This document shows positions 5,638-15,887 of a stretch of DNA of 64,000 nucleotides, in pieces; within the stretch, counting starts at the first letter, position 1, and each line of letters opens with the position of its first letter. Position numbers and translations under genes: made by a program. The DNA lies in assembly GCA_963720545.1 (NCBI GenBank), contig OY970399.1, positions 1,824,001 to 1,888,000 on the forward strand. The letters are read 5' to 3'. The notes beneath the pieces were generated by a model that worked only from the letters and a program-made list of their open reading frames with translations, ran no database searches and was not told where the DNA came from. The DNA comes from an uncultured Acidobacteriota bacterium. GTDB taxonomy: Bacteria > Acidobacteriota > Vicinamibacteria > Fen-336.

Positions 5638-8190
5638 CTACTTCCGGAAGATTCGCGCGTAGCCGCCGGCGACCAGCGCAGAGACGTCCGCCATGATGCG
5701 CGGCAGCCGGAACCCGCCCGGATAGGCGAGGTAGTGCGGCTGCCACTCCGGAAAAAACTTCTCTTTGTAGGCGCGCAACCCCTGGAAGTTGTAGACGGCC
5801 TCGCCGTGCTCGTAGAGAAAGGCGCCGAGCCGTGTCCACAACGACGCGACCGGCGAGCTCTCGAAGCCGGAGAGCGGCGCCATGCCCATGGCGAAGCGGC
5901 GATAGCCGTGTTCCTGTCCCCACTTCATCAAGTGGACGAACAGGCCCTCCATCACCGTGTTCGGCGCGTCGCGGTTGTGGCGCATCAGGTCGATCGACAG
6001 CTCCTGGCCGTCGGGGCCCGGCCAGATGTTCGCAAACGCGACGATGCGCGCGTCGCGCTCGATCACCGCCACCGGAAAGCGGCGCACGTACTCCTCGTCG
6101 AAGAAGCCGAGCGAGAAGCCCTTCTCGGCGCTCGCCTTCTCTTTAAGCCAGTCGTCGGAGATGACGCGCAGGCGCGCCATCGCGTCCGCTACCTCGCCCG
6201 GCTCGAGCACCCGGAACGAGCAACCCTCCTTCTCCAGCCGGCGCAGCGCCTGGCGATGCTTCGCCGCCTGGCTGCCGTCGAGTGTGAACGCGGCGAGATC
6301 CACCTTCGCTTCCTCGCCGAGCTTCACGAACGTGAGGCCGAAGTCGGCGTAGAGGTGCAGCAGCGACTTCCCCACCTCGTAGAACACCGGCACGCCGCCG
6401 TAGTCGTCGCAACGCTCGAGGAAGCGCCGGATCAGGTTCGCGGCTTCCGTCTCCGGCCCGACAGGGTCGCCCAGCGCGACCCAGGTGCGCCCCTGCACCG
6501 CGTACATCACGAAGGCGCTGCGCTCCTCGTTGAAGAAGAGTGCCTTGTCGCGCAGGTAGACGAGGTACGGAAAGGTCGCGCCCTGGGCCGCGATGACGCG
6601 CGCGGCGTCGGCCAGGTCGGCGTCCCCGGGCAGGGGCGCTTCGTGCGGTGCGTAGCGCACCAGCCGCGCCAGGCCGAAGACGGCCACCGTCACCGCGGCG
6701 CCGACCGAGGCGCGCAGGAAGCGCGAGGCCTCGCCGCGCAGCTCGAACTGCCACCACAGCTCGTGCGAATACTCGACGTGCTTGAAGGCGAAGAGCCCGA
6801 GCCAGATCGAGGCGCCGATGGCGCCGACCAGCGCCGCGGTCCAGCTTGCCGAGAAGCGGGTATCGAAGAACGCGGCGCGCCGGTCGAACGCGTGACGGGC
6901 GCGGGTCAGGATCAGCAGCACGATTGCGACCAGGAGCGCTTCCTCGTAGTCGAAGCCTTTCAGGAGCGTCGTCACCATGCCGGCGACCATGACCGCGGCC
7001 GTCAGGTAGTAGGCGGCGTCGAGGCGCCGCGCGACCCCCTGGGACAACACCAGCAAGGCAGCGCCCGCCACGCTCGAGAGGAAATGCGAAGCCTCGATGA
7101 TGCCGATCGGCAGGAAAGAGTCGAGCCACGCCAGCCGGCCCGCGGCGGCGGGGGTCGCACTCGAGAAGAGCAGCACGCAACCGGCGGAGAACACGCACGC
7201 GGCCAGCACCCTTGGCGTGAGCAGTTCCGTCAGCCGTCCGGCCACGGCGCCCGCCCGCGCCACGCTGCGCCGGCGTTGCCACGCCTCGTCGGCCACCAGG
7301 CCGAGGGCGGCGAGCGACAACGGCGCGAGGTAGTAGACGGCCCGGTACACGACGAGCGCCGGCAGCAATGCGCCGGACGTGACATACGGCCTCAGCAGCA
7401 GCACCATCAGCCCTTCGAACACGCCGACGCCGCCCGGCACATGGCTCAGCATGCCGAGGAGCGCAGCCGCCAAGAAGGCGCCGAGGAACCGCAGGTATCC
7501 CGGCTCGCCGGGCGGCAGCAGCACGTACAAGACGCCTCCCGCGAGCGACCAGTCGAGGGCCGAGAGCAGGACCTGCGCTGCCGCGATGCGCACGCCGGGC
7601 AGGGGCAGAGAGAAGCCACCGAACTGCAGCGGCGCGCGCCGCAGCGACGCGAGTGCCACGTACAAGGCCGGCACCAGCATGAATGCGAAGCCGGTGCCGG
7701 CCAGGAGCTCGCCGCCGGGAATCTCATGAAGCGCCTCGGGCGGCCGGGCGGCGAGGCTGAGCCCGCCGAGCAACAGCAGGCCGAGCCAGAACGTCACCGA
7801 ATAGCAAATGATGATGCGCGACAGCTCCTCGAGGGTGACGCCCCAGCGCTTGTAGAAGCGGTAGCGCATGGTCGTCCCGGAGACGAGCGCGAAGCCGACG
7901 TTGTGCGAAACCGCGTAGGCGACGAACGATGCGAACGCCACGCGCGCCCGTGCGATGGGCTTGCCGATGTAGGCGAACGCCAGCAGGTCGTAGCCGGTGA
8001 GCACGAAGTAGTTGGCCGCGGTGAGGATGGCGGCGAGCGCCAGGCGCTGCCACGGCGTTGCCAGCACGTCGCGCACCAGGTCGTGCCAGGAAACCGCGCG
8101 CAGCTCTGTGCGCAGAACGAAAAGGCCCGCTGCGAACAGCGCGAGCCCGAGCAGGACGGGCAGCGCCCGCCGCAGCTTCACGAAACCCAC
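5638..8190 (-). CDS. mprF: bifunctional aminoacyl(lysyl)-phosphatidylglycerol flippase/synthetase MprF
   Basis: 850 aa; N-terminal multi-TM flippase (HVPGGVGVFE) and C-terminal transferase (ALGDPVG, KLGEEA, EKGFSLG, SIDLMR, MGMAPLSG, YNFQGLRAYKEKF). Confidence 0.95.
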   Translation of the reverse strand: MGFVKLRRALPVLLGLALFAAGLFVLRTELRAVSWHDLVRDVLATPWQRLALAAILTAANYFVLTGYDLLAFAYIGKPIARARVAFASFVAYAVSHNVGFALVSGTTMRYRFYKRWGVTLEELSRIIICYSVTFWLGLLLLGGLSLAARPPEALHEIPGGELLAGTGFAFMLVPALYVALASLRRAPLQFGGFSLPLPGVRIAAAQVLLSALDWSLAGGVLYVLLPPGEPGYLRFLGAFLAAALLGMLSHVPGGVGVFEGLMVLLLRPYVTSGALLPALVVYRAVYYLAPLSLAALGLVADEAWQRRRSVARAGAVAGRLTELLTPRVLAACVFSAGCVLLFSSATPAAAGRLAWLDSFLPIGIIEASHFLSSVAGAALLVLSQGVARRLDAAYYLTAAVMVAGMVTTLLKGFDYEEALLVAIVLLILTRARHAFDRRAAFFDTRFSASWTAALVGAIGASIWLGLFAFKHVEYSHELWWQFELRGEASRFLRASVGAAVTVAVFGLARLVRYAPHEAPLPGDADLADAARVIAAQGATFPYLVYLRDKALFFNEERSAFVMYAVQGRTWVALGDPVGPETEAANLIRRFLERCDDYGGVPVFYEVGKSLLHLYADFGLTFVKLGEEAKVDLAAFTLDGSQAAKHRQALRRLEKEGCSFRVLEPGEVADAMARLRVISDDWLKEKASAEKGFSLGFFDEEYVRRFPVAVIERDARIVAFANIWPGPDGQELSIDLMRHNRDAPNTVMEGLFVHLMKWGQEHGYRRFAMGMAPLSGFESSPVASLWTRLGAFLYEHGEAVYNFQGLRAYKEKFFPEWQPHYLAYPGGFRLPRIMADVSALVAGGYARIFRK

Positions 8191-8194
8191 CGCC

Positions 8195-8968
8195 TCAGGG
8201 CGAGACGTTGCTCGTCACCCAATCGATCGCCTCGAGCAGCCGTTTGTCGAACTCGTCGAGGTTGCCGCTGAAGCGGTGGTCCTCGGCGGCGACGATCCAG
8301 AGCTTCTTCGGCTCCCTGGCGGCATCGAACATCTTTTGCACCACCGGCACCGGGATGAATTCGTCGTTGCTCGAGTGAATCGCCGCGATCGGCGCCGGAC
8401 TCACCCCGGCGATCAACGCGGCCGCGCTGAAGGTGGGCTCGTTCGGCACACCGTGCGTCAGGTAGATCACGCTGTCGCGCCAGCGCCAACCGAGCTCGTT
8501 GATGTCGGGCAGCCCCAGGGCGATGACGCCGGCGATCGAGCGGCGCGTGCCGGCGTCGGTCGCCGCCATCACCGCGAGCCCCGCTCCCTCGGATATGCCG
8601 ATCAGGATGGGGCGCTCGCCGGTTGCGGAAGCCGCGTAGTCGGCAAGCACCTTGAAGTCGCCGGGTTCGTCTTCGGGCCGGAGCGTTTCCTTGTCTCTCG
8701 TGAAGCTCTCGAGGTAGGCCCTGGCGTCGAGTCCCACCACGAAGTAGCCCTTGCCCGCCAGGAATTCCGCGGCGTGCGGCGCGAGGTGCATCCATCCGCC
8801 GTCGCCGCTCGCGAGCACCAGAGGCCGGGCGCTTGCGGACCCGTAGAGGTGCAGAACCTGCGGCCGGCCGCGCAGCATGAGGGTGGCCGGCGTCGACGTC
8901 GGTGACGCCGAGCCGGTCGCAGCAGCGAGCAATGCGGCAGCCACGAGGCGCAAGGATGAAGACAGCAT
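8195..8968 (-). CDS. AcvB/VirJ-family aminoacyl-phosphatidylglycerol hydrolase
   Basis: Signal peptide; SGDGGW, VVGLDARAY, LIGISEGA, DHRFSGN; directly upstream of mprF. Start placed at ATG 8968 (alternative 9031). Confidence 0.8.
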   Translation of the reverse strand: MLSSSLRLVAAALLAAATGSASPTSTPATLMLRGRPQVLHLYGSASARPLVLASGDGGWMHLAPHAAEFLAGKGYFVVGLDARAYLESFTRDKETLRPEDEPGDFKVLADYAASATGERPILIGISEGAGLAVMAATDAGTRRSIAGVIALGLPDINELGWRWRDSVIYLTHGVPNEPTFSAAALIAGVSPAPIAAIHSSNDEFIPVPVVQKMFDAAREPKKLWIVAAEDHRFSGNLDEFDKRLLEAIDWVTSNVSP

Positions 8969-9042
8969 CCGTCCGAGCAGTGTAGCGGCCCCCGTCGATT
9001 TGAGGAAAATGAGTAACATCGGGTGCTTCAAGGAGGCGACAC

Positions 9043-9321: not shown

Positions 9322-10599
9322 CTAGCGCATCACGCGGCGCGCGGCGGGCACGGCCGCCGGCGCCGCGATGGTGTTGAGGAACGCCGTGTTGTTCGGCGTC
9401 TTCGCGATCTTGTCGATCAGGAACTGCGCGGCGTCCACTGTCGACAGCTCGGCGAGCGCGCGGCGCAGCAGGTGGCGCTGCTTCAGCTCGTCGGGCGTGC
9501 ACAGCAGCTCCTCGCGGCGCGTGCCCGACTTCAGCACGTCCACCGCGGGGAAGATGCGCCGCTCCGAGATGGCGCGGTCGAGGATCAGCTCCATGTTCCC
9601 GGTGCCCTTGAACTCCTGGAAAATCACTTCGTCCATGCGGCTGCCGGTGTCGATGAGCGCGGTCGCCAGGATGGTGAGGCTGCCGCCGCCTTCGCAGTTG
9701 CGGGCCGCGCCGAAGAACTGGCGCGGGAACAGCAGCGCGCGGTTGTCGACGCCGCCGCTCATGGTGCGGCCGCCAGGCCCGATCTCGCGGTTCGAAGCGC
9801 GGCCCAGGCGCGTCAGGCTGTCGAGCAGGATGACGACGTGGCGCCCCGCTTCGACCAGCCGCTTGGCGCGCTCGATCGCGAGCTTGGAAAGCCGCATGTG
9901 CGCGTCGGCGGCCGAGTCGGCCGACGAGGCGAGCACTTCGGCGCCCTGCACGGCGCGGCGGAAGTGCGTCACTTCCTCGGGCCGCTCGTCGACCAGCAGC
10001 ATGATGAGGTGCACTTCGGGATGGTGCTTGACGATCGCCTTGCCCAGGTGCTCGAGCAGGGTGGTCTTGCCGGCCTTCGGCGGCGAGACGATCAGGCCGC
10101 GCTGGCCGCGGCCAATGGGGGCGATGAGGTCGATGACGCGCAGCGACGCCTCGGCTCCGGTGTCGGGCGCCAGCTTGAACGGCTCGCTCGGGTTGATCGA
10201 AACGAGATCGGCAAAGTGCGGGAGTTGCTTGTACTCCTCGGGCGTCAACCCGCTCATCTTCTGGATCTCTACTAATACGCGGCGTCCGCCGCCATCACGA
10301 GCCAGGCCTTCGATCTCCGTTCCGTCGCGGAGCGCCTGATCCCGGGCAACCTGCGCGGGAATCACGACGTCGTCGCGGTGCGGTAGGTAGTTCTGTTCGG
10401 CCAGCCTTACGTAGCCCCCACCGCTCTCGGTCACTTCTGCGACGCCCTTGACTTCCGTCGTGGGGCCCGAGGTCGGGATCTGGATCTGACGGGGCTCTCT
10501 CGGCCCTTTGGCTCCCTGGAACTGAGGGTTGTACCCGTTGGGCCGATCGTTTCGGTGATGTTGGCGATGGCGCCGCGAGTGCCGCGAACCGTGTCTCAC
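9322..10599 (-). CDS. rho: transcription termination factor Rho (short, divergent N-terminus)
   Basis: APIGRGQRGLIVSPPKAGKTT, LLVDERPEEVT, LLDSLTRLGRA, FFGAARN, ATALIDTGSRMDEVIFQEFKGTGNME, SGTRREELL. Confidence 0.93.
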   Translation of the reverse strand: MRHGSRHSRRHRQHHRNDRPNGYNPQFQGAKGPREPRQIQIPTSGPTTEVKGVAEVTESGGGYVRLAEQNYLPHRDDVVIPAQVARDQALRDGTEIEGLARDGGGRRVLVEIQKMSGLTPEEYKQLPHFADLVSINPSEPFKLAPDTGAEASLRVIDLIAPIGRGQRGLIVSPPKAGKTTLLEHLGKAIVKHHPEVHLIMLLVDERPEEVTHFRRAVQGAEVLASSADSAADAHMRLSKLAIERAKRLVEAGRHVVILLDSLTRLGRASNREIGPGGRTMSGGVDNRALLFPRQFFGAARNCEGGGSLTILATALIDTGSRMDEVIFQEFKGTGNMELILDRAISERRIFPAVDVLKSGTRREELLCTPDELKQRHLLRRALAELSTVDAAQFLIDKIAKTPNNTAFLNTIAAPAAVPAARRVMR

Positions 10600-11429: not shown

Positions 11430-11525
11430 CGCCCGGAGTCTATAACGCAGGTTTCTGGGTCCCGCGAGAGCGCGGTGTATCATCGAAACCGACTTCATAC
11501 ATCCACTTCTTCCGAGGAGGAATTC

Positions 11526-11906
11526 ATGCGTCGTATTCAAGGTTTCGTGGCACCGTTGCTGGTCGCGCTGCTGCTTTGCCCTGGTTCGGCATTCGCCCAG
11601 TCGGTCGTCACACCGCAGGATCTCGACAAGGCCGTGAGCGCGCAGCTCGGCTCCGATGCCGAAGCGCGCCAGGCGATCCAGAACCTGCTGGCTCGCGAGG
11701 ATGTCCGCGCCTACGCGCAAGGCTACGGCCTTGACGTGTCGCGCGCATCCGCCGCGGTTGCCACCCTGCAGGGCAACGATCTGCACGCGCTGGCGCAGCA
11801 GGCGAACGCCGTTGACGCCGGCCTGTCCGGCGGCGATCCGGTGATCCGCATCAGCCTGATCGCAGCGCTCCTCATCATCATCATCGTCATCCTCATCGTC
11901 AACTAA
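11526..11906 (+). CDS. PA2779-like small secreted protein with Gly-Gly motif and hydrophobic C-terminal tail
   Basis: GAGGAGG RBS; signal peptide ending SAFA; helical middle; ...AGLSGG-DPVIRISLIAALLIIIIVILIVN; adjacent to a C39 peptidase. Confidence 0.8.
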   Translation: MRRIQGFVAPLLVALLLCPGSAFAQSVVTPQDLDKAVSAQLGSDAEARQAIQNLLAREDVRAYAQGYGLDVSRASAAVATLQGNDLHALAQQANAVDAGLSGGDPVIRISLIAALLIIIIVILIVN

Positions 11907-11926
11907 GGCGCGCTCCGCAAGGCAGC

Positions 11927-13906
11927 GTGCAGTTCCTGGGCGTCCTGCTGGCAGCGAGCCTGTCGGCGGGCGCCCGGGACGTTCCTTACGTCCCGCAGAC
12001 GGGCGCACTCTGCGGCGGCGCCGCCGCGGCGATGATCGTGCGCTACTGGGGCGGCCCCGCCCTGCGGCCTGAAGATTTCGCGGCGCAGCTCAACCCGCAG
12101 AAGACCGGGATCCGCGCCCGCGACCTCGCCGCGGCCATCGCCGCCCGCGGCTTCGCGACCGAGGTCGTCAGCGGCGACCAGACCGCGGCACAGGAGTGGC
12201 TCGCGGCGGGACGCCCGTTCATCGCGCTCGTCAAGCTCGACCGCACGGGCCCGACCTTTCACTATGTCGTGGTGCTCGACTGGTCGCACGGCGAGGTGAT
12301 CGTCCACGATCCGGCGCTGCGTCCGTCGCGCGTGATCTCACAGGACGTGTTCCTCACCGCGTGGAATGCGACCGAGCGGCTGACGATCACGGCGGCGCCG
12401 GATGCGGCGGAGACGGCGGCGCTCGCGCCATCTACGGCACCGGCACCGGTGAACGCAGAGACGCCACGTACCGCAACGCCCTGCGCGCCGCTGGTGGCCC
12501 GCGCCGGGGAACTGGCGCGCGCCGACGACCTGGACAGCGCCGCCGCCGAGCTCGACGCGGCCATCGCGCGCTGCCCCGCCGACCCGGCGCCGCGCCGCGA
12601 GCGTGCCGGGGTGTACTTCCGCGTCAAGGAGTGGCAGCTCGCCGCGCGGTTCGCGCGCGCGGCGGTGGCTCTCGACCCGCAGGACCAGGCAGCCATTCGC
12701 CTTGCCGCCACCAGCCTTTATCTCAACGGCCAACAGGAGCTCGCGCTGCGCTACTGGAACCAGCTCCGCCCCGGCGAGCCGCGCCTCGATCTCGTGAACG
12801 TCAGCGGGCTGTCGCGGCTCGCCTACCGCTCGGTCGAGGATGGCCTCGGGCTCGAGACGGGTGAGCTCCTCACCGAGCGCGGCTACCGGCGCGCGGCGCG
12901 GCGCATCGCCGACCTGCCGGGAGTGCTGACCGCGAGCCTGCGCTACGAGCCGCACGCCGGAGTCGCCCAGGTCGAAGCCTCGGTGGTGGAACGGCCGGTG
13001 CTGCAGCCGCTGCGCTGGCTGGCCGTCGACACCGCGCTCGACGCATTGGTGCGGCGCGAGGTGGGCGTGACGGTCGCGAACCTGACGGCGTCCGGCGAGC
13101 GTTTCGACGCGCGCTATCGTTTCGAGGACCAGCGGCCCGCCGTGTTCCTCAACGGACGGGCGCCCACGCGTCTCGGCACCGCCGGCGTGTCCGGGTTGTG
13201 GGACGAGCAGTCGTACGCGGTGGCTGACGGCTTCGTGCGCGAACGCCGCAAGGGCGCCGCCGTCTCGCTCCGCTCCTGGCTCGACTCCGACCTGCGCGCG
13301 ACGCTCCTGCTCGGCGCCGACCGCTGGAACGAGAGTGACAGCACGGTGCTCGCCGCCGCAACGCTCGAACGCCGCTTTGCCGCCGACCGCTTCGCCGCGC
13401 TCGCCCGCCTCGAGAGCTACCTGGGCACTTCCGGCGGACCGTCGTTCCACCGCACCTCGCTCGAGTTCCGCGCGCGCACCTCGCGGCGCCCGCACAACTG
13501 GAACGCGTCGGCGAGCGCCGCCTTCGATGCCGCGAGTGGCGACGCGCCGCGGGCGCTGTGGCCGGGTGCCGGCACCGGCCGCGGCCGCGAGCGTTTGCTT
13601 CGCGCCCATCCGCTGCTGCGCGACGGGCTCATCGCCGGCCCCGCATTCGGCCGTCGCCTGGTGCACGGCACCATCGAGGCCGAGCACACCATCGGGCGCG
13701 CCGGACCGGTGGTGCTGGGTGCCGCGGTCTTCGCCGACCTGGCGCGGGTGCGCAGCGACTCGGGCACCGCGTCGTTCGTCGACTGGGGCGCCGGCGCGCG
13801 CATCCGCTTCCCGGCGACGCGTTCGGCGTTTCGCGTCGACCTGGCCACCGCGGGCACGTCGGGACGGTTCGTGGTCTCGGCCGGCTGGGTCGAGACCTGG
13901 CGCTAG
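11927..13906 (+). CDS. C39-like cysteine peptidase - TPR - POTRA - Omp85-type beta-barrel fusion
   Basis: Signal peptide; VPYVPQTGALCGGAAAAMIVRYWG, HYVVV, HDP (Gln/Cys/His/Asp); TPR-like helices; POTRA-like segment ending VVERP; beta-strand-rich C-terminus with FADLA, DWGAGARI, FRVDLA and terminal aromatic residues. Confidence 0.78.
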   Translation: MQFLGVLLAASLSAGARDVPYVPQTGALCGGAAAAMIVRYWGGPALRPEDFAAQLNPQKTGIRARDLAAAIAARGFATEVVSGDQTAAQEWLAAGRPFIALVKLDRTGPTFHYVVVLDWSHGEVIVHDPALRPSRVISQDVFLTAWNATERLTITAAPDAAETAALAPSTAPAPVNAETPRTATPCAPLVARAGELARADDLDSAAAELDAAIARCPADPAPRRERAGVYFRVKEWQLAARFARAAVALDPQDQAAIRLAATSLYLNGQQELALRYWNQLRPGEPRLDLVNVSGLSRLAYRSVEDGLGLETGELLTERGYRRAARRIADLPGVLTASLRYEPHAGVAQVEASVVERPVLQPLRWLAVDTALDALVRREVGVTVANLTASGERFDARYRFEDQRPAVFLNGRAPTRLGTAGVSGLWDEQSYAVADGFVRERRKGAAVSLRSWLDSDLRATLLLGADRWNESDSTVLAAATLERRFAADRFAALARLESYLGTSGGPSFHRTSLEFRARTSRRPHNWNASASAAFDAASGDAPRALWPGAGTGRGRERLLRAHPLLRDGLIAGPAFGRRLVHGTIEAEHTIGRAGPVVLGAAVFADLARVRSDSGTASFVDWGAGARIRFPATRSAFRVDLATAGTSGRFVVSAGWVETWR

Positions 13907-14931
13907 CCGACCGTGCCCCAGGTGTCGCCGAGCACATAGCCCTCGGGAAAGGGGTCGCGCGGGTCGACGAAGTACTGGTGCAGGCCGGTGATGAATGCCG
14001 AACCCTTCACCGCGGGCACGATCGCCGCACGGCCGGAGACGGTGGTCTCGCGCGCGATGCGGCCGGTGAAGCGCGAGCCGAGGACCGACTCCTGGATCAT
14101 CTCGTCGCCGGTGCGCATCGCGCCGCTTGCGTGCAGCACCGCCAGCCGCGCCGACAGCGCGGTGCCGGTGGGGCTGCGATCGAGCCGCCCCGGCGACACC
14201 ACCACGGCGTTGCGCGTGACACGGCCTTTGCCCGCGAAGGCGCAGGCGAACTGCACGATGCTGACGCGGCTGATCGACGGCATCTCGGGGTGCGCCACAT
14301 CGAGCTGCTCGCGCGCCGCCTGCCGCACTCTCTCGCCCATCGCCGAGATATCGCGGGCCTCGTCGGCGGTCACCCTGAAGCCGAAGGCCGCGGGATCGAC
14401 GATGGCGTAGATCATGCCGCCGTAGGCCACGTCCACCGCCACGGTGCCGACGCCGGGAACCTCCACGGGCGCCTGCAGGCGCAGCACGAAGCTCGGGACG
14501 TTCTCGAACTCGACCGACAGGACGGCGCCGTCGCGGCACTCGGCCGTCACGGCGACGACACCGCCCGGCATGTCCAGCTGCAGCAGCGTGTGCGGTTCGC
14601 GCATCGGCACGATGCCCGTCTCGAGCAGCACGGTGGCGATGCAGATGGTGTTCGAACCCGACATCGGCGGATACTCGGTCGGCTCCATGATGATGGCGCC
14701 GGCCTGGCAATCGGGCCGCGTCGACGGCACCAGCAGGTTCACGTGGCGCGCGACGCTGCCGCGCGGCTCGCGAAGCAGCAGCCTGCGGATGTGGTCGGAC
14801 TCGCGCTCCATCGTGTGCGCCTTGTCGAGCATGGTGGCGCCTGGCGGCGGCAGGACGCCGCCGATGATCACGTCGCCGACTTCGCCGGCCGCATGGCAGC
14901 CGACCACCGTGATCACGCGCTTCGCATTCAT
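13903..14931 (-). CDS. proline racemase superfamily protein, Ser/Thr catalytic pair (possible 3-hydroxyproline dehydratase)
   Basis: CHAAGE, LLREPRG, PPMSGSNTIC, VDVAYGG, DRSPTGTA. Confidence 0.88.
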   Translation of the reverse strand: MNAKRVITVVGCHAAGEVGDVIIGGVLPPPGATMLDKAHTMERESDHIRRLLLREPRGSVARHVNLLVPSTRPDCQAGAIIMEPTEYPPMSGSNTICIATVLLETGIVPMREPHTLLQLDMPGGVVAVTAECRDGAVLSVEFENVPSFVLRLQAPVEVPGVGTVAVDVAYGGMIYAIVDPAAFGFRVTADEARDISAMGERVRQAAREQLDVAHPEMPSISRVSIVQFACAFAGKGRVTRNAVVVSPGRLDRSPTGTALSARLAVLHASGAMRTGDEMIQESVLGSRFTGRIARETTVSGRAAIVPAVKGSAFITGLHQYFVDPRDPFPEGYVLGDTWGTVG

Positions 14932-14996
14932 GGCCGGAAGTGCCGGAATGCTAATACGATTGGCTTTTCGCAAACACGACCGAGGAGGCGCCCGCG

Positions 14997-15887
14997 ATGA
15001 CATTGCCTATCCTTGCCGCAACGCTGCTGCTCAGCACCATACAGGCGGCGGCGCCGTCGCCTGCACCCTCGCCGTCGGCGATGCCGACGCCGGTGCTCCC
15101 GCGCAACGAGGCGCTGCCGCCTTCGGACGCACAGGCTAAGGCGGCGCTCGACAGCACGCCCCGCCACGGCGAATACGTAAACATCGACTTCCCCGCCGGC
15201 AACACCAAGCTGCGCACCTTCGTGGTGTTTCCGGAACGCAAGGAGAAGGCACCCGTCGTGATCGTCATTCACGAGGTCTATGGCCTCAGCGACTGGCTGC
15301 GCGGTGTCGCCGACCAGCTCGCAAAGGACGGGTTCATCGCGGTTGCCCCCGACCTCATCACCGGCCTCGGGCCCGGCGGAGGCGGCACCGAGTCGCTGCC
15401 GAGCCGTGACGACGTGGTGAGCGCGATCCGCTCGCTGACGCCGGCGGACGCCACGGCGCGCCTCGACGCGGTGCTCGGCTGGGCGCTGCAGCTGCCTTCC
15501 GCCAGCGGCCGTTCGGCTACCCTCGGCTTCTGCTGGGGCGGCGCGCGCAGTTTCGCATACGCGACCACCCAGCCACGCCTGGACGCCGCCGTCGTCTACT
15601 ACGGCGCGGCGCCCGACGCCGCGGCGCTCGCCAGCATCAAGGCGCCGGTCCTCGGCCTCTACGGCGGCGACGATGAGCGCGTCAACGCGACCATCGAACC
15701 GGCGAAGGCGGAGATCGCGAAGCTCGGCAAGAGTTTCGAGTACGAGATCTACGACGGCGCCGGCCACGGTTTCGTGCGCGCCCAGGGCGACCGCAACGGC
15801 GCCAACCTCAAGGCCATCGAAGCCGCCTGGCCGCGCACCCTTGCTTTCCTGAGGAAGTATCTGAGCGACAATCGCCCACTGCAGTAG
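14997..15887 (+). CDS. exported dienelactone hydrolase family protein
   Basis: Signal peptide and Pro-rich linker; VIHEVYGL, GFCWGG, GAGHGF; GAGGAGG RBS. Confidence 0.9.
   Translation: MTLPILAATLLLSTIQAAAPSPAPSPSAMPTPVLPRNEALPPSDAQAKAALDSTPRHGEYVNIDFPAGNTKLRTFVVFPERKEKAPVVIVIHEVYGLSDWLRGVADQLAKDGFIAVAPDLITGLGPGGGGTESLPSRDDVVSAIRSLTPADATARLDAVLGWALQLPSASGRSATLGFCWGGARSFAYATTQPRLDAAVVYYGAAPDAAALASIKAPVLGLYGGDDERVNATIEPAKAEIAKLGKSFEYEIYDGAGHGFVRAQGDRNGANLKAIEAAWPRTLAFLRKYLSDNRPLQ

Follow-up and report, generated by a model that had tools for sequence, protein, structure and literature searches.

What would a cysteine peptidase process when it is built into the same chain as an outer-membrane barrel, and where would the product go? 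This question is raised by two adjacent genes in a 64-kb stretch of DNA (64,000 nt, called the window below) from an uncultured bacterium of the Acidobacteriota (Vicinamibacteria; Fen-336; assembly GCA_963720545.1, contig OY970399.1, positions 1,824,001 to 1,888,000); coordinates given here are positions in the window, and residue numbers refer to the individual proteins. An original prediction had described a protein of 126 amino acids, with a Sec signal peptide and an LSGG motif followed by a hydrophobic tail of 23 residues, and, 20 bp downstream, a protein of 659 amino acids that joins a C39 peptidase to a barrel; both are found in the sequence as described, on the same strand. It had left two routes open: cleavage at Gly-Gly would either release the soluble domain from its membrane anchor or free a hydrophobic peptide that is passed to the barrel.

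The two genes, here called the precursor gene and the fusion gene, form a conserved unit that is apparently undescribed. A dedicated pair for processing outside the cytoplasm is supported by their adjacency, by conservation of Gly-Gly, by an intact active site and by predicted binding of one protein to the other. Between the two routes the evidence favours transfer of the peptide to the barrel over a sorting-like release, because the tail has no basic cytoplasmic end and because barrel and precursor stay together where the protease is a separate gene or is missing. That the pair constitutes a leader-guided processing and insertion machine, which would place a hydrophobic helical peptide into the outer membrane, is a proposal on which our judgement is about evenly poised.

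A conserved gene pair

The adjacency and the Gly-Gly motif were surveyed for loss in 80 loci, the best of 395 matching stretches. An intact precursor gene lies directly upstream of the fusion gene at 76 of these 80 loci, which come from several phyla, and the pairing is therefore not due to chance; Gly-Gly is present in all 77 precursors of the fused clade (those of the 76 loci and that of the window). Of the remaining four loci one has a frameshifted precursor (L077, possibly an assembly error), one meets a contig edge and two (L039 and L064) have a fusion gene without an adjoining precursor; at L039 the gene upstream is one that we take to encode a BON-domain protein. The source genome holds the precursor in a single copy, no second precursor or other substrate having been found there, and the C39 match of the fusion protein is the only one in that genome. 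There is no conserved third gene, the commonest neighbour family occurring at 14 of 76 loci, and no immunity or accessory gene is conserved beside the pair among these 76. An ABC transporter had been stated to be missing nearby, and indeed no ABC ATPase is encoded within the window (the nearest in the genome lie about 14 kb upstream and about 59 kb downstream); the ABC domain of PCAT/AMS exporters is absent from the fusion protein as well.

The precursor

The small protein belongs to the PA2779 family: it scores above the curated cut-off of NF033919 (Table 1), it is encoded beside a C39 peptidase gene, and its 66 aligned homologues all match NF033919 at E ≤ 0.01. Leader profiles of the Nif11/NHLP type are matched weakly (PF07862, E 0.0023, 18.6 against a cut-off of 23.8; TIGR03798, E 0.095). 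The junction of the predicted signal peptide, Ala-x-Ala/Gln, is kept in the homologues. The model of the precursor is all-helical, and a fold search with it against 48,161 chains gave nothing above the noise of helical proteins (best Z 8.5, root-mean-square deviation (rmsd) 6.8).

A profile search returned 1695 representatives at E ≤ 0.001, of which the best 150 were examined. Gly-Gly is found in 147 of these 150, whereas distant precursors mostly have Ala-Gly (39 of 51 in a rough count); the double-Gly motif of the original prediction is, judged from the sequences, strict only in the fused clade. There it is followed by a core of 21–27 residues which reaches the stop codon, averages 2.4 in hydropathy, contains hardly any polar residue and is rich in β-branched residues (Ile 30%, Val 14%, Thr 14%). 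The median number of residues after the hydrophobic run is 1 in the best 150 precursors, and none of them has at least two Lys/Arg there, compared with 16 of 36 in a rough control consisting of those reading frames of the source genome that have one C-terminal hydrophobic run; by its sequence, the tail is without the basic residues typical of inner-membrane anchors. In the fused clade the mean identity of the core is 51%, that of the leader or soluble domain 40%.

The fusion protein

Among 7999 candidates 149 homologues of the fusion protein were found, and the best 120 (612–721 amino acids, 80–100% query coverage) were used for the counts that follow. The AlphaFold2 model (predicted local distance difference test, pLDDT, 91.7; predicted template modelling score, pTM, 0.89) has the domain order C39, loose linker, TPR helices, one POTRA domain and barrel, and together with the fold searches it bears out the TPR helices, the POTRA-like segment and the barrel-like C-terminus that had been proposed. 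Profiles gave a mixed picture: those of PA2779 and C39 find their proteins, but Pfam detects neither the POTRA domain nor, with PF01103, the barrel in the fusion protein (PF01103 matches 3 of 33 family barrels, weakly), and both of these were found by model and fold search.

The C39 domain scores above the Pfam cut-offs (PF03412, 39.8 against 22; PF13529, 40.3 against 24). A single-sequence search with this domain against solved structures gave no match; a profile search did, and in the resulting alignment (E 3e-13) Gln24, Cys29, His112 and Asp128 coincide with the active site of ComA. All four residues are present in 116 of the 120 homologues; in the remaining 4 the N-terminus is missing. The catalytic residues are thus intact as predicted. 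The TPR helices are matched below the Pfam cut-off; their Cys186/Cys216 pair is kept in 116 of 120 homologues. The signal peptide proposed for the large protein is short and has no basic residue, for which reason the claim of its export rests on the homologues, where a hydrophobic N-terminal stretch is seen in 96 of the 103 having a long enough N-terminus; a lipobox occurs in none of 114 family members.

The likeness to PA2779/PA2778 pairs that had been pointed out holds for the small protein and only in part for the large one, which shows the PA2778-type order of C39 followed by TPR (in profile match and model) but scores 43.6 against a cut-off of 150 with NF033920, the PA2778 family, over residues 17–275. 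No longer fusions of the barrel were seen among 8000 candidates, which is a slight indication at best; shorter barrel proteins gave 25 matches, nearly all on short contigs.

A barrel predicted to lack its first strand

Fold searches place BamA and TamA first (E about 1e-11; TamA with Z 25.1, rmsd 5.0 and 352 aligned residues), followed by FhaC and CdiB with scores near that of TamA (Z 23.3 and 23.0). A profile of the family was aligned with a canonical Omp85 profile made of 28 BamA/TamA-type sequences from related genomes (30 loci, 2 incomplete ones dropped), with a probability of 98.7 in global and 97.3 in local mode; the end of the POTRA domain, β-2, the first periplasmic turn, loop 6 and the last strands are lined up. 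By both approaches the protein thus has the POTRA domain and barrel fold of the Omp85 proteins. The lid-lock motifs are present in variant form (LRAH for RG(F/Y) of loop 6, FxDxA for FxDxG of β-13), and the residues aligned to the canonical motifs are nearly invariant (Arg559 in 120, Phe602 and Asp604 in 119 of 120 homologues).

The Omp85-type barrel of the original prediction stands; what had been missed is that its first strand, β-1, is predicted to be absent. For those Omp85 proteins that have been characterised, a barrel of 16 strands is described (PMC11116518, in the part available). In the model 15 strands follow the POTRA domain, from residues 378–384 to 648–656 as assigned by DSSP, and the position of β-1 is occupied by a helix of residues 362–376 with a pLDDT of 92–93. 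In the profile alignment residues 358–377 fall on β-1 and loop 1, with β-2 onward colinear. In 118 of 120 homologues the segment that replaces them measures 20 residues; its Gly content is 7% as against 21% in the canonical strand, and a strand-type periodicity dominates in 26 of the 28 canonical proteins versus 48 of 120 family members. Column averages give it a broad hydrophobic face with a polar stripe at 368, 372 and 376, as is expected for a helix in a barrel wall. In the barrels of the split forms described below, which are about 15% identical, the helix has the same position (probability 99.6). Model, alignment and composition agree in the prediction that the β-1 edge strand with which BamA and TamA engage the β-signal of a client is missing. 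In BamA, β-1 serves as the template for these β-signals (PMC13067283, as far as its accessible text goes), and since the barrel of the fusion protein is predicted to be without it, it is unlikely to fold ordinary β-barrel proteins; for such clients the source genome keeps three strong canonical Omp85 matches.

Predicted binding of the precursor

Co-folding of the precursor with the fusion protein gave a score of 0.71, the best of 3 controls 0.00; of 157 solved complexes 116 attain this mark, as do 2 of 215 mismatched pairs, counts that are rough when own alignments are used. At least 84% of contacts are shared between the runs, and the partner pLDDT is 74 or more. Confident contacts join TPR residues 191–268 and POTRA residues 293–294 and 334–361 to precursor residues 25–41 and 70–83, from which it is predicted that the pro-domain behaves like a leader read by TPR and POTRA beside the barrel seam. 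The C39 domain and Gly-Gly with the core are not among these contacts, and the prediction is neutral as to docking of Gly-Gly at Cys29.

Split forms and scattered precursors

The comparison across other ARRANGEMENTS covered 201 genomes of the phylum, 61 closer genomes and 20 stretches read individually. With the barrel called as full-length at E < 1e-40, precursor and barrel occur together in 20 of the 201 genomes, neither in 178, the barrel alone in none and the precursor alone in 3; precursor matches are thus present in 23 genomes, which include all 20 with the barrel. A short barrel fragment occurs in one further genome, and weaker rows are partial and probably represent canonical Omp85 proteins. 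Among the 61 closer genomes the numbers are 33 with both, 22 with neither, 1 with the barrel only (78% complete) and 5 with the precursor only, 2 of which have a C39 gene without barrel beside the precursor, the layout of PA2778.

The 20 stretches comprise 9 with precursor, C39 and TPR-POTRA-barrel, 2 with precursor and TPR-barrel but no C39 between them, 2 with the fused form, 2 with precursor and C39 without this barrel, and 5 with precursors but no adjoining machine gene. A C39 domain or gene accompanies each of the 19 full-length barrels that were fetched (fused in 3, adjacent in 16), whereas paralogous precursor loci have an adjacent C39 or barrel gene in 0 of 20 cases; many genomes therefore combine a single machine with one to five scattered precursors. 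The cores of the scattered precursors vary and are always hydrophobic. In five paralogues (L165, L169, L173, L175 and L177) the core is followed by an acidic tail rich in Tyr/Trp with a Cys-x-Cys motif and is often preceded by runs of His, which could bind metal or form disulfides. At three loci (L153, L170 and L178) two precursors stand in tandem, and the pair at L153 precedes a C39-TPR gene without barrel.

In one genome (G030, 100% complete) a precursor without Gly at the site (L152, 5242–5691, minus strand) lies beside a TPR-POTRA-barrel gene; a C39 of this type was not found in the genome, which gave only weak generic C39 matches. Judged by its sequence, this single case points to barrel and precursor as the pair at the core of the system; the locus amounts to a natural protease-less version of the machine. 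A PA2779/PA2778 pair on an Azoarcus plasmid has Gly-Gly followed by a hydrophobic core of 21 residues, and a barrel of this type is not encoded in the plasmid record. The protease has a lipoprotein-type N-terminus, which, judged from the sequence, is a third way to hold it at a membrane.

How the pair may work

Both proteins would cross the inner membrane by Sec, by way of their signal peptides. The tail of the precursor would be held there only weakly, because almost no residues and no basic cluster follow the hydrophobic run, and the pro-domain may serve as its carrier. The pro-domain is predicted to bind in the groove of the TPR helices and at the edge of the POTRA domain, immediately below the barrel seam; the C39 domain, its active site being complete, would cut after Gly103, and the freed core would be handed to the seam and inserted through a gap that is lined by a helix instead of β-1. 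A protease fixed at the outer membrane is badly placed for a site two to four residues from the inner membrane, which suggests that the core is at the outer membrane when it is cut. A barrel without β-1, as modelled, could not template β-barrel clients in the way of BamA, and a helix-lined gap would suit a helical client. We tentatively consider the fusion protein a dedicated α-helix insertase, that is, an Omp85 protein with a helix in place of β-1, which would read the leader with TPR and POTRA, clip it with its own protease and move helices of about 23 residues into the outer membrane; so specific an assignment is plausible but still somewhat doubtful. The weakest step is the last and is speculative: the product may be a small helix that is abundant in the outer membrane and has a structural role. 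Such a role is favoured by the conserved core, by the lack of an immunity gene and by strong constitutive expression in P. stutzeri, where a PA2779-family gene is within the top 3% of expressed genes in all four samples (PMC10155442, in the part available).

Several points weigh against insertion. How so hydrophobic a tail would leave the inner membrane and cross the periplasm is left unexplained. The segment shows only a modest helical periodicity, which outweighs that of a strand in 72 of 120 family members, and the helix may instead sit as a plug in the lumen, with parallel strands closing the barrel. Co-occurrence was counted among related genomes, which are not independent, so that Fisher values computed from these counts exaggerate the association, and 14 of the 20 barrel-positive genomes of the phylum contributed to the barrel profile (in the closer set 2 of 34 are known contributors); the frames of the charge control include that of the precursor and, probably, a few spurious ones. 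The adjacent precursor is missing at 2 of 80 fused genes, and barrel-less systems (the Azoarcus plasmid and genomes G076, G234 and G238) indicate that the peptide can be handled without the barrel.

PlpD, an Omp85 protein, carries a periplasmic enzyme without known export (PMC11116518, in the part available), which speaks against insertion too and fits an arrangement in which the barrel only tethers the protease: the tail would be an inner-membrane anchor, and the cut would free a working product, a soluble domain of 77 residues that acts as a chaperone, signal or regulator. A tail-anchored protein would likewise have a signal peptide and a hydrophobic helix at the C-terminus, the Gly-rich motif before the helix recalls GlyGly-CTERM, and the soluble domain is itself conserved. 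However, GlyGly-CTERM is defined in part by basic residues clustered behind the helix (PMC6219818, as far as available); such a cluster is found in none of 150 precursors, and a protease on one POTRA domain and a few TPR helices would hardly reach a site at the inner membrane; the TPR-barrel stays beside the precursor where the protease is separate or missing, and the loss of β-1 would have no explanation. We regard such a release as unlikely.

Recognition and cut could also be as proposed and the core be passed on to the surface or the medium, as a water-repellent coat, a Fap-like fibre or amyloid, or a membrane-active peptide. Fap does pair a periplasmic C39 with a dedicated barrel (PMC5557850, in the text available), the β-branched composition of the core would suit this fate, and a layout of many precursors whose cores vary, some carrying an acidic Tyr/Cys tail, is reminiscent of systems for peptide natural products. 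Yet a core of such hydropathy, with almost no polar residue, should remain in the bilayer, no immunity or accessory gene is conserved, and the core is more conserved than the leader, unlike a diversifying weapon; export to the surface seems improbable. Still less probable is an export of the two-partner type, in which the POTRA domain would bind the pro-domain in the manner of TpsB and its cargo, cleavage would take off the tail and the pro-domain would be threaded out through the lumen. The predicted interface includes POTRA edge strands, the fold scores of FhaC and CdiB are near that of TamA, and there is one co-encoded cargo; against this, the POTRA domain is single and is not preceded by an N-terminal plug helix, the pro-domain is all-helical, in contrast to TpsA cargo, which we take to be β-helical, and the strong constraint on the tail would go unexplained.

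Should insertion be correct, the pair would represent an overlooked and possibly abundant class of outer-membrane components, of which PA2778/PA2779 would be the barrel-less form in Proteobacteria, and this catalogued but unstudied pair would acquire a testable job. A natural Omp85 family predicted to lack β-1, with one obvious helical client, offers a direct test of the lateral gate, and it bears on how α-helical segments enter the outer membrane, which is unsettled even for SlyB (PMC13067283, in its accessible text). The two-gene unit is small enough to be rebuilt in the laboratory and might become a tool for placing chosen helical peptides in the outer membrane.

Features of the locus and its surroundings

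Table 1. Features of the precursor and fusion genes, by position in the window
Feature	Position	Strand	Basis
Ribosome-binding site GAGGAGG of the precursor gene	11514..11520	+	Sequence
Precursor gene, PA2779 family, 126 amino acids, ATG start	11526..11906	+	NF033919, 50.4 bits (cut-off 40)
Predicted Sec signal peptide, residues 1–24, ends A-F-A	11526..11597	+	Sequence (putative)
Helical pro-domain/leader, residues 25–101	11598..11828	+	Model (pLDDT 71.7), complex prediction
Gly102-Gly103 (LSGG), likely cleavage site	11829..11834	+	Conservation (cleavage putative)
Hydrophobic core, 23 amino acids, predicted single helix, likely product	11835..11903	+	Sequence, model
Fusion gene, C39-TPR-POTRA-Omp85-like, 659 amino acids, GTG start	11927..13906	+	Sequence, profiles, model, fold search
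Short predicted signal peptide, residues 1–16, no lipobox	11927..11974	+	Sequence, homologues (putative)
C39 peptidase domain	11975..12400	+	Pfam profiles, ComA alignment
Catalytic codons Gln24, Cys29, His112, Asp128	11996-11998, 12011-12013, 12260-12262, 12308-12310	+	
TPR helices, residues 186–280, conserved Cys186/Cys216 pair	12482..12766	+	Weak Pfam, model
Single POTRA domain, residues 284–357	12776..12997	+	Model, fold search, profile alignment
20-residue segment in place of Omp85 β-1 and loop 1, predicted amphipathic helix 362–376	12998..13057	+	
15 predicted barrel strands, equivalent to β-2 to β-16	13058..13894	+	Model, fold search, profile alignment
Loop-6 motif LRAHP	13598-13612	+	Alignment
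FxD motif	13730-13738	+	Alignment

Upstream of the pair a divergent gene (10695 to about 11420, minus strand) probably encodes a secreted protein of about 241 amino acids, without a meaningful Pfam or NCBIfam match, and has a short upstream region in common with the precursor gene. It is followed by the gene for transcription terminator Rho, with RNA-binding and ATPase domains (9322–10599, minus strand), and, at 5638–9031 on the same strand, by what we take, by eye, to be an MprF-like lysyl-phosphatidylglycerol synthase gene (850 amino acids) beside a VirJ-like hydrolase gene. At the other end a proline racemase-family gene (13903–15003, minus strand) converges on the fusion gene, the stop codons overlapping in CTAG (13903–13906). 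At related loci of the group L004–L079 an OmpA-family-like gene lies near the pair in 10 cases and an outer-membrane β-barrel-like gene in 7, both probably by lineage synteny.

A promoter scan gave one promoter-like match, antisense and inside the precursor gene, and a terminator scan found no terminator, including at the convergent end with the proline racemase-family gene. Sigma-54 control was rejected as a general feature, a motif-like site lying upstream of 2 of 74 precursors with 1.1 expected, and none in the window. A small part of the stretch is represented in four metatranscriptome samples from two studies: 11515–11996 is covered by five near-identical contigs, one of which spans the 20-bp gap, and the rest by none; these contigs may hold DNA, give no expression level or gene ranking and were not counted as evidence.

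Comparison with known systems

The small protein is a member of the PA2779 side of the PA2779/PA2778 pair (NF033919/NF033920; Pfam DUF6627), and the gene order is the same on the Azoarcus plasmid; compared with PA2778 the fusion protein has no lipobox, is extended by a POTRA domain and a barrel, and falls far below the family cut-off. In print PA2779 and PA2778 are mentioned only in passing in the available parts of PMC3985676 and bioRxiv 10.1101/733030, and no published function of the pair was found in a search whose coverage largely excludes subscription papers. The reading of PA2778 as a toxin of the type VI secretion system, a candidate in the accessible text of the latter that is not taken further there, was rejected here, signal peptides and a conserved precursor arguing against it. 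Within the same coverage there was no description of a C39-Omp85 fusion or of a 15-stranded Omp85 protein, and the Omp85 survey by Heinz and Lithgow (PMC4104836) has no C39 or TPR class in its text and four supplements, as far as accessible.

With GlyGly-CTERM/rhombosortase systems the pair shares a Sec-exported protein with a Gly motif before a C-terminal hydrophobic helix; of the full signature (Gly/Ser motif, helix and basic cluster) the last element is lacking, the partner is a C39 cysteine peptidase and not a rhomboid protease, and the tag is not spread over unrelated proteins. PCAT/ComA proteins have the same C39 fold and catalytic residues, an expected cut after Gly-Gly and a conserved leader with a variable core. 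Here, there are no ABC domains, both partners have Sec signals, which places processing outside the cytoplasm, and a leader of 77 residues is predicted to bind TPR and POTRA. TpsB proteins such as FhaC and CdiB, which we take to be defined by two POTRA domains and an N-terminal plug helix, differ from the fusion protein with its one modelled POTRA domain. BamA and TamA share POTRA and barrel fold, and in variant form the motifs of loop 6 and β-13; the fusion protein departs from them by its one POTRA domain, the fused TPR and protease, and the predicted loss of β-1.

Closest in build is PlpD, in which a periplasmic enzyme, one POTRA domain and an Omp85 barrel are joined; this enzyme is a lipase and not a peptidase, the barrel has 16 strands and there is no co-encoded substrate (PMC11116518, in the part available). 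Closest in working is Fap, which has no ABC transporter and combines a Sec-exported C39 in the periplasm with an outer-membrane barrel of its own: export through FapF depends on FapD and its intact Cys, and the target of FapD is unclear in the accessible text of PMC5557850. FapF forms a trimer whose 12-stranded barrels have no relationship to Omp85, and Fap cargo is polar and consists of Asn/Gln-rich amyloid repeats, whereas in the pair described here protease and barrel of Omp85 fold are one chain and the cargo, by its composition, is a hydrophobic helix. The module thus belongs to neither Fap nor PlpD, resembling the one in its working and the other in its build.

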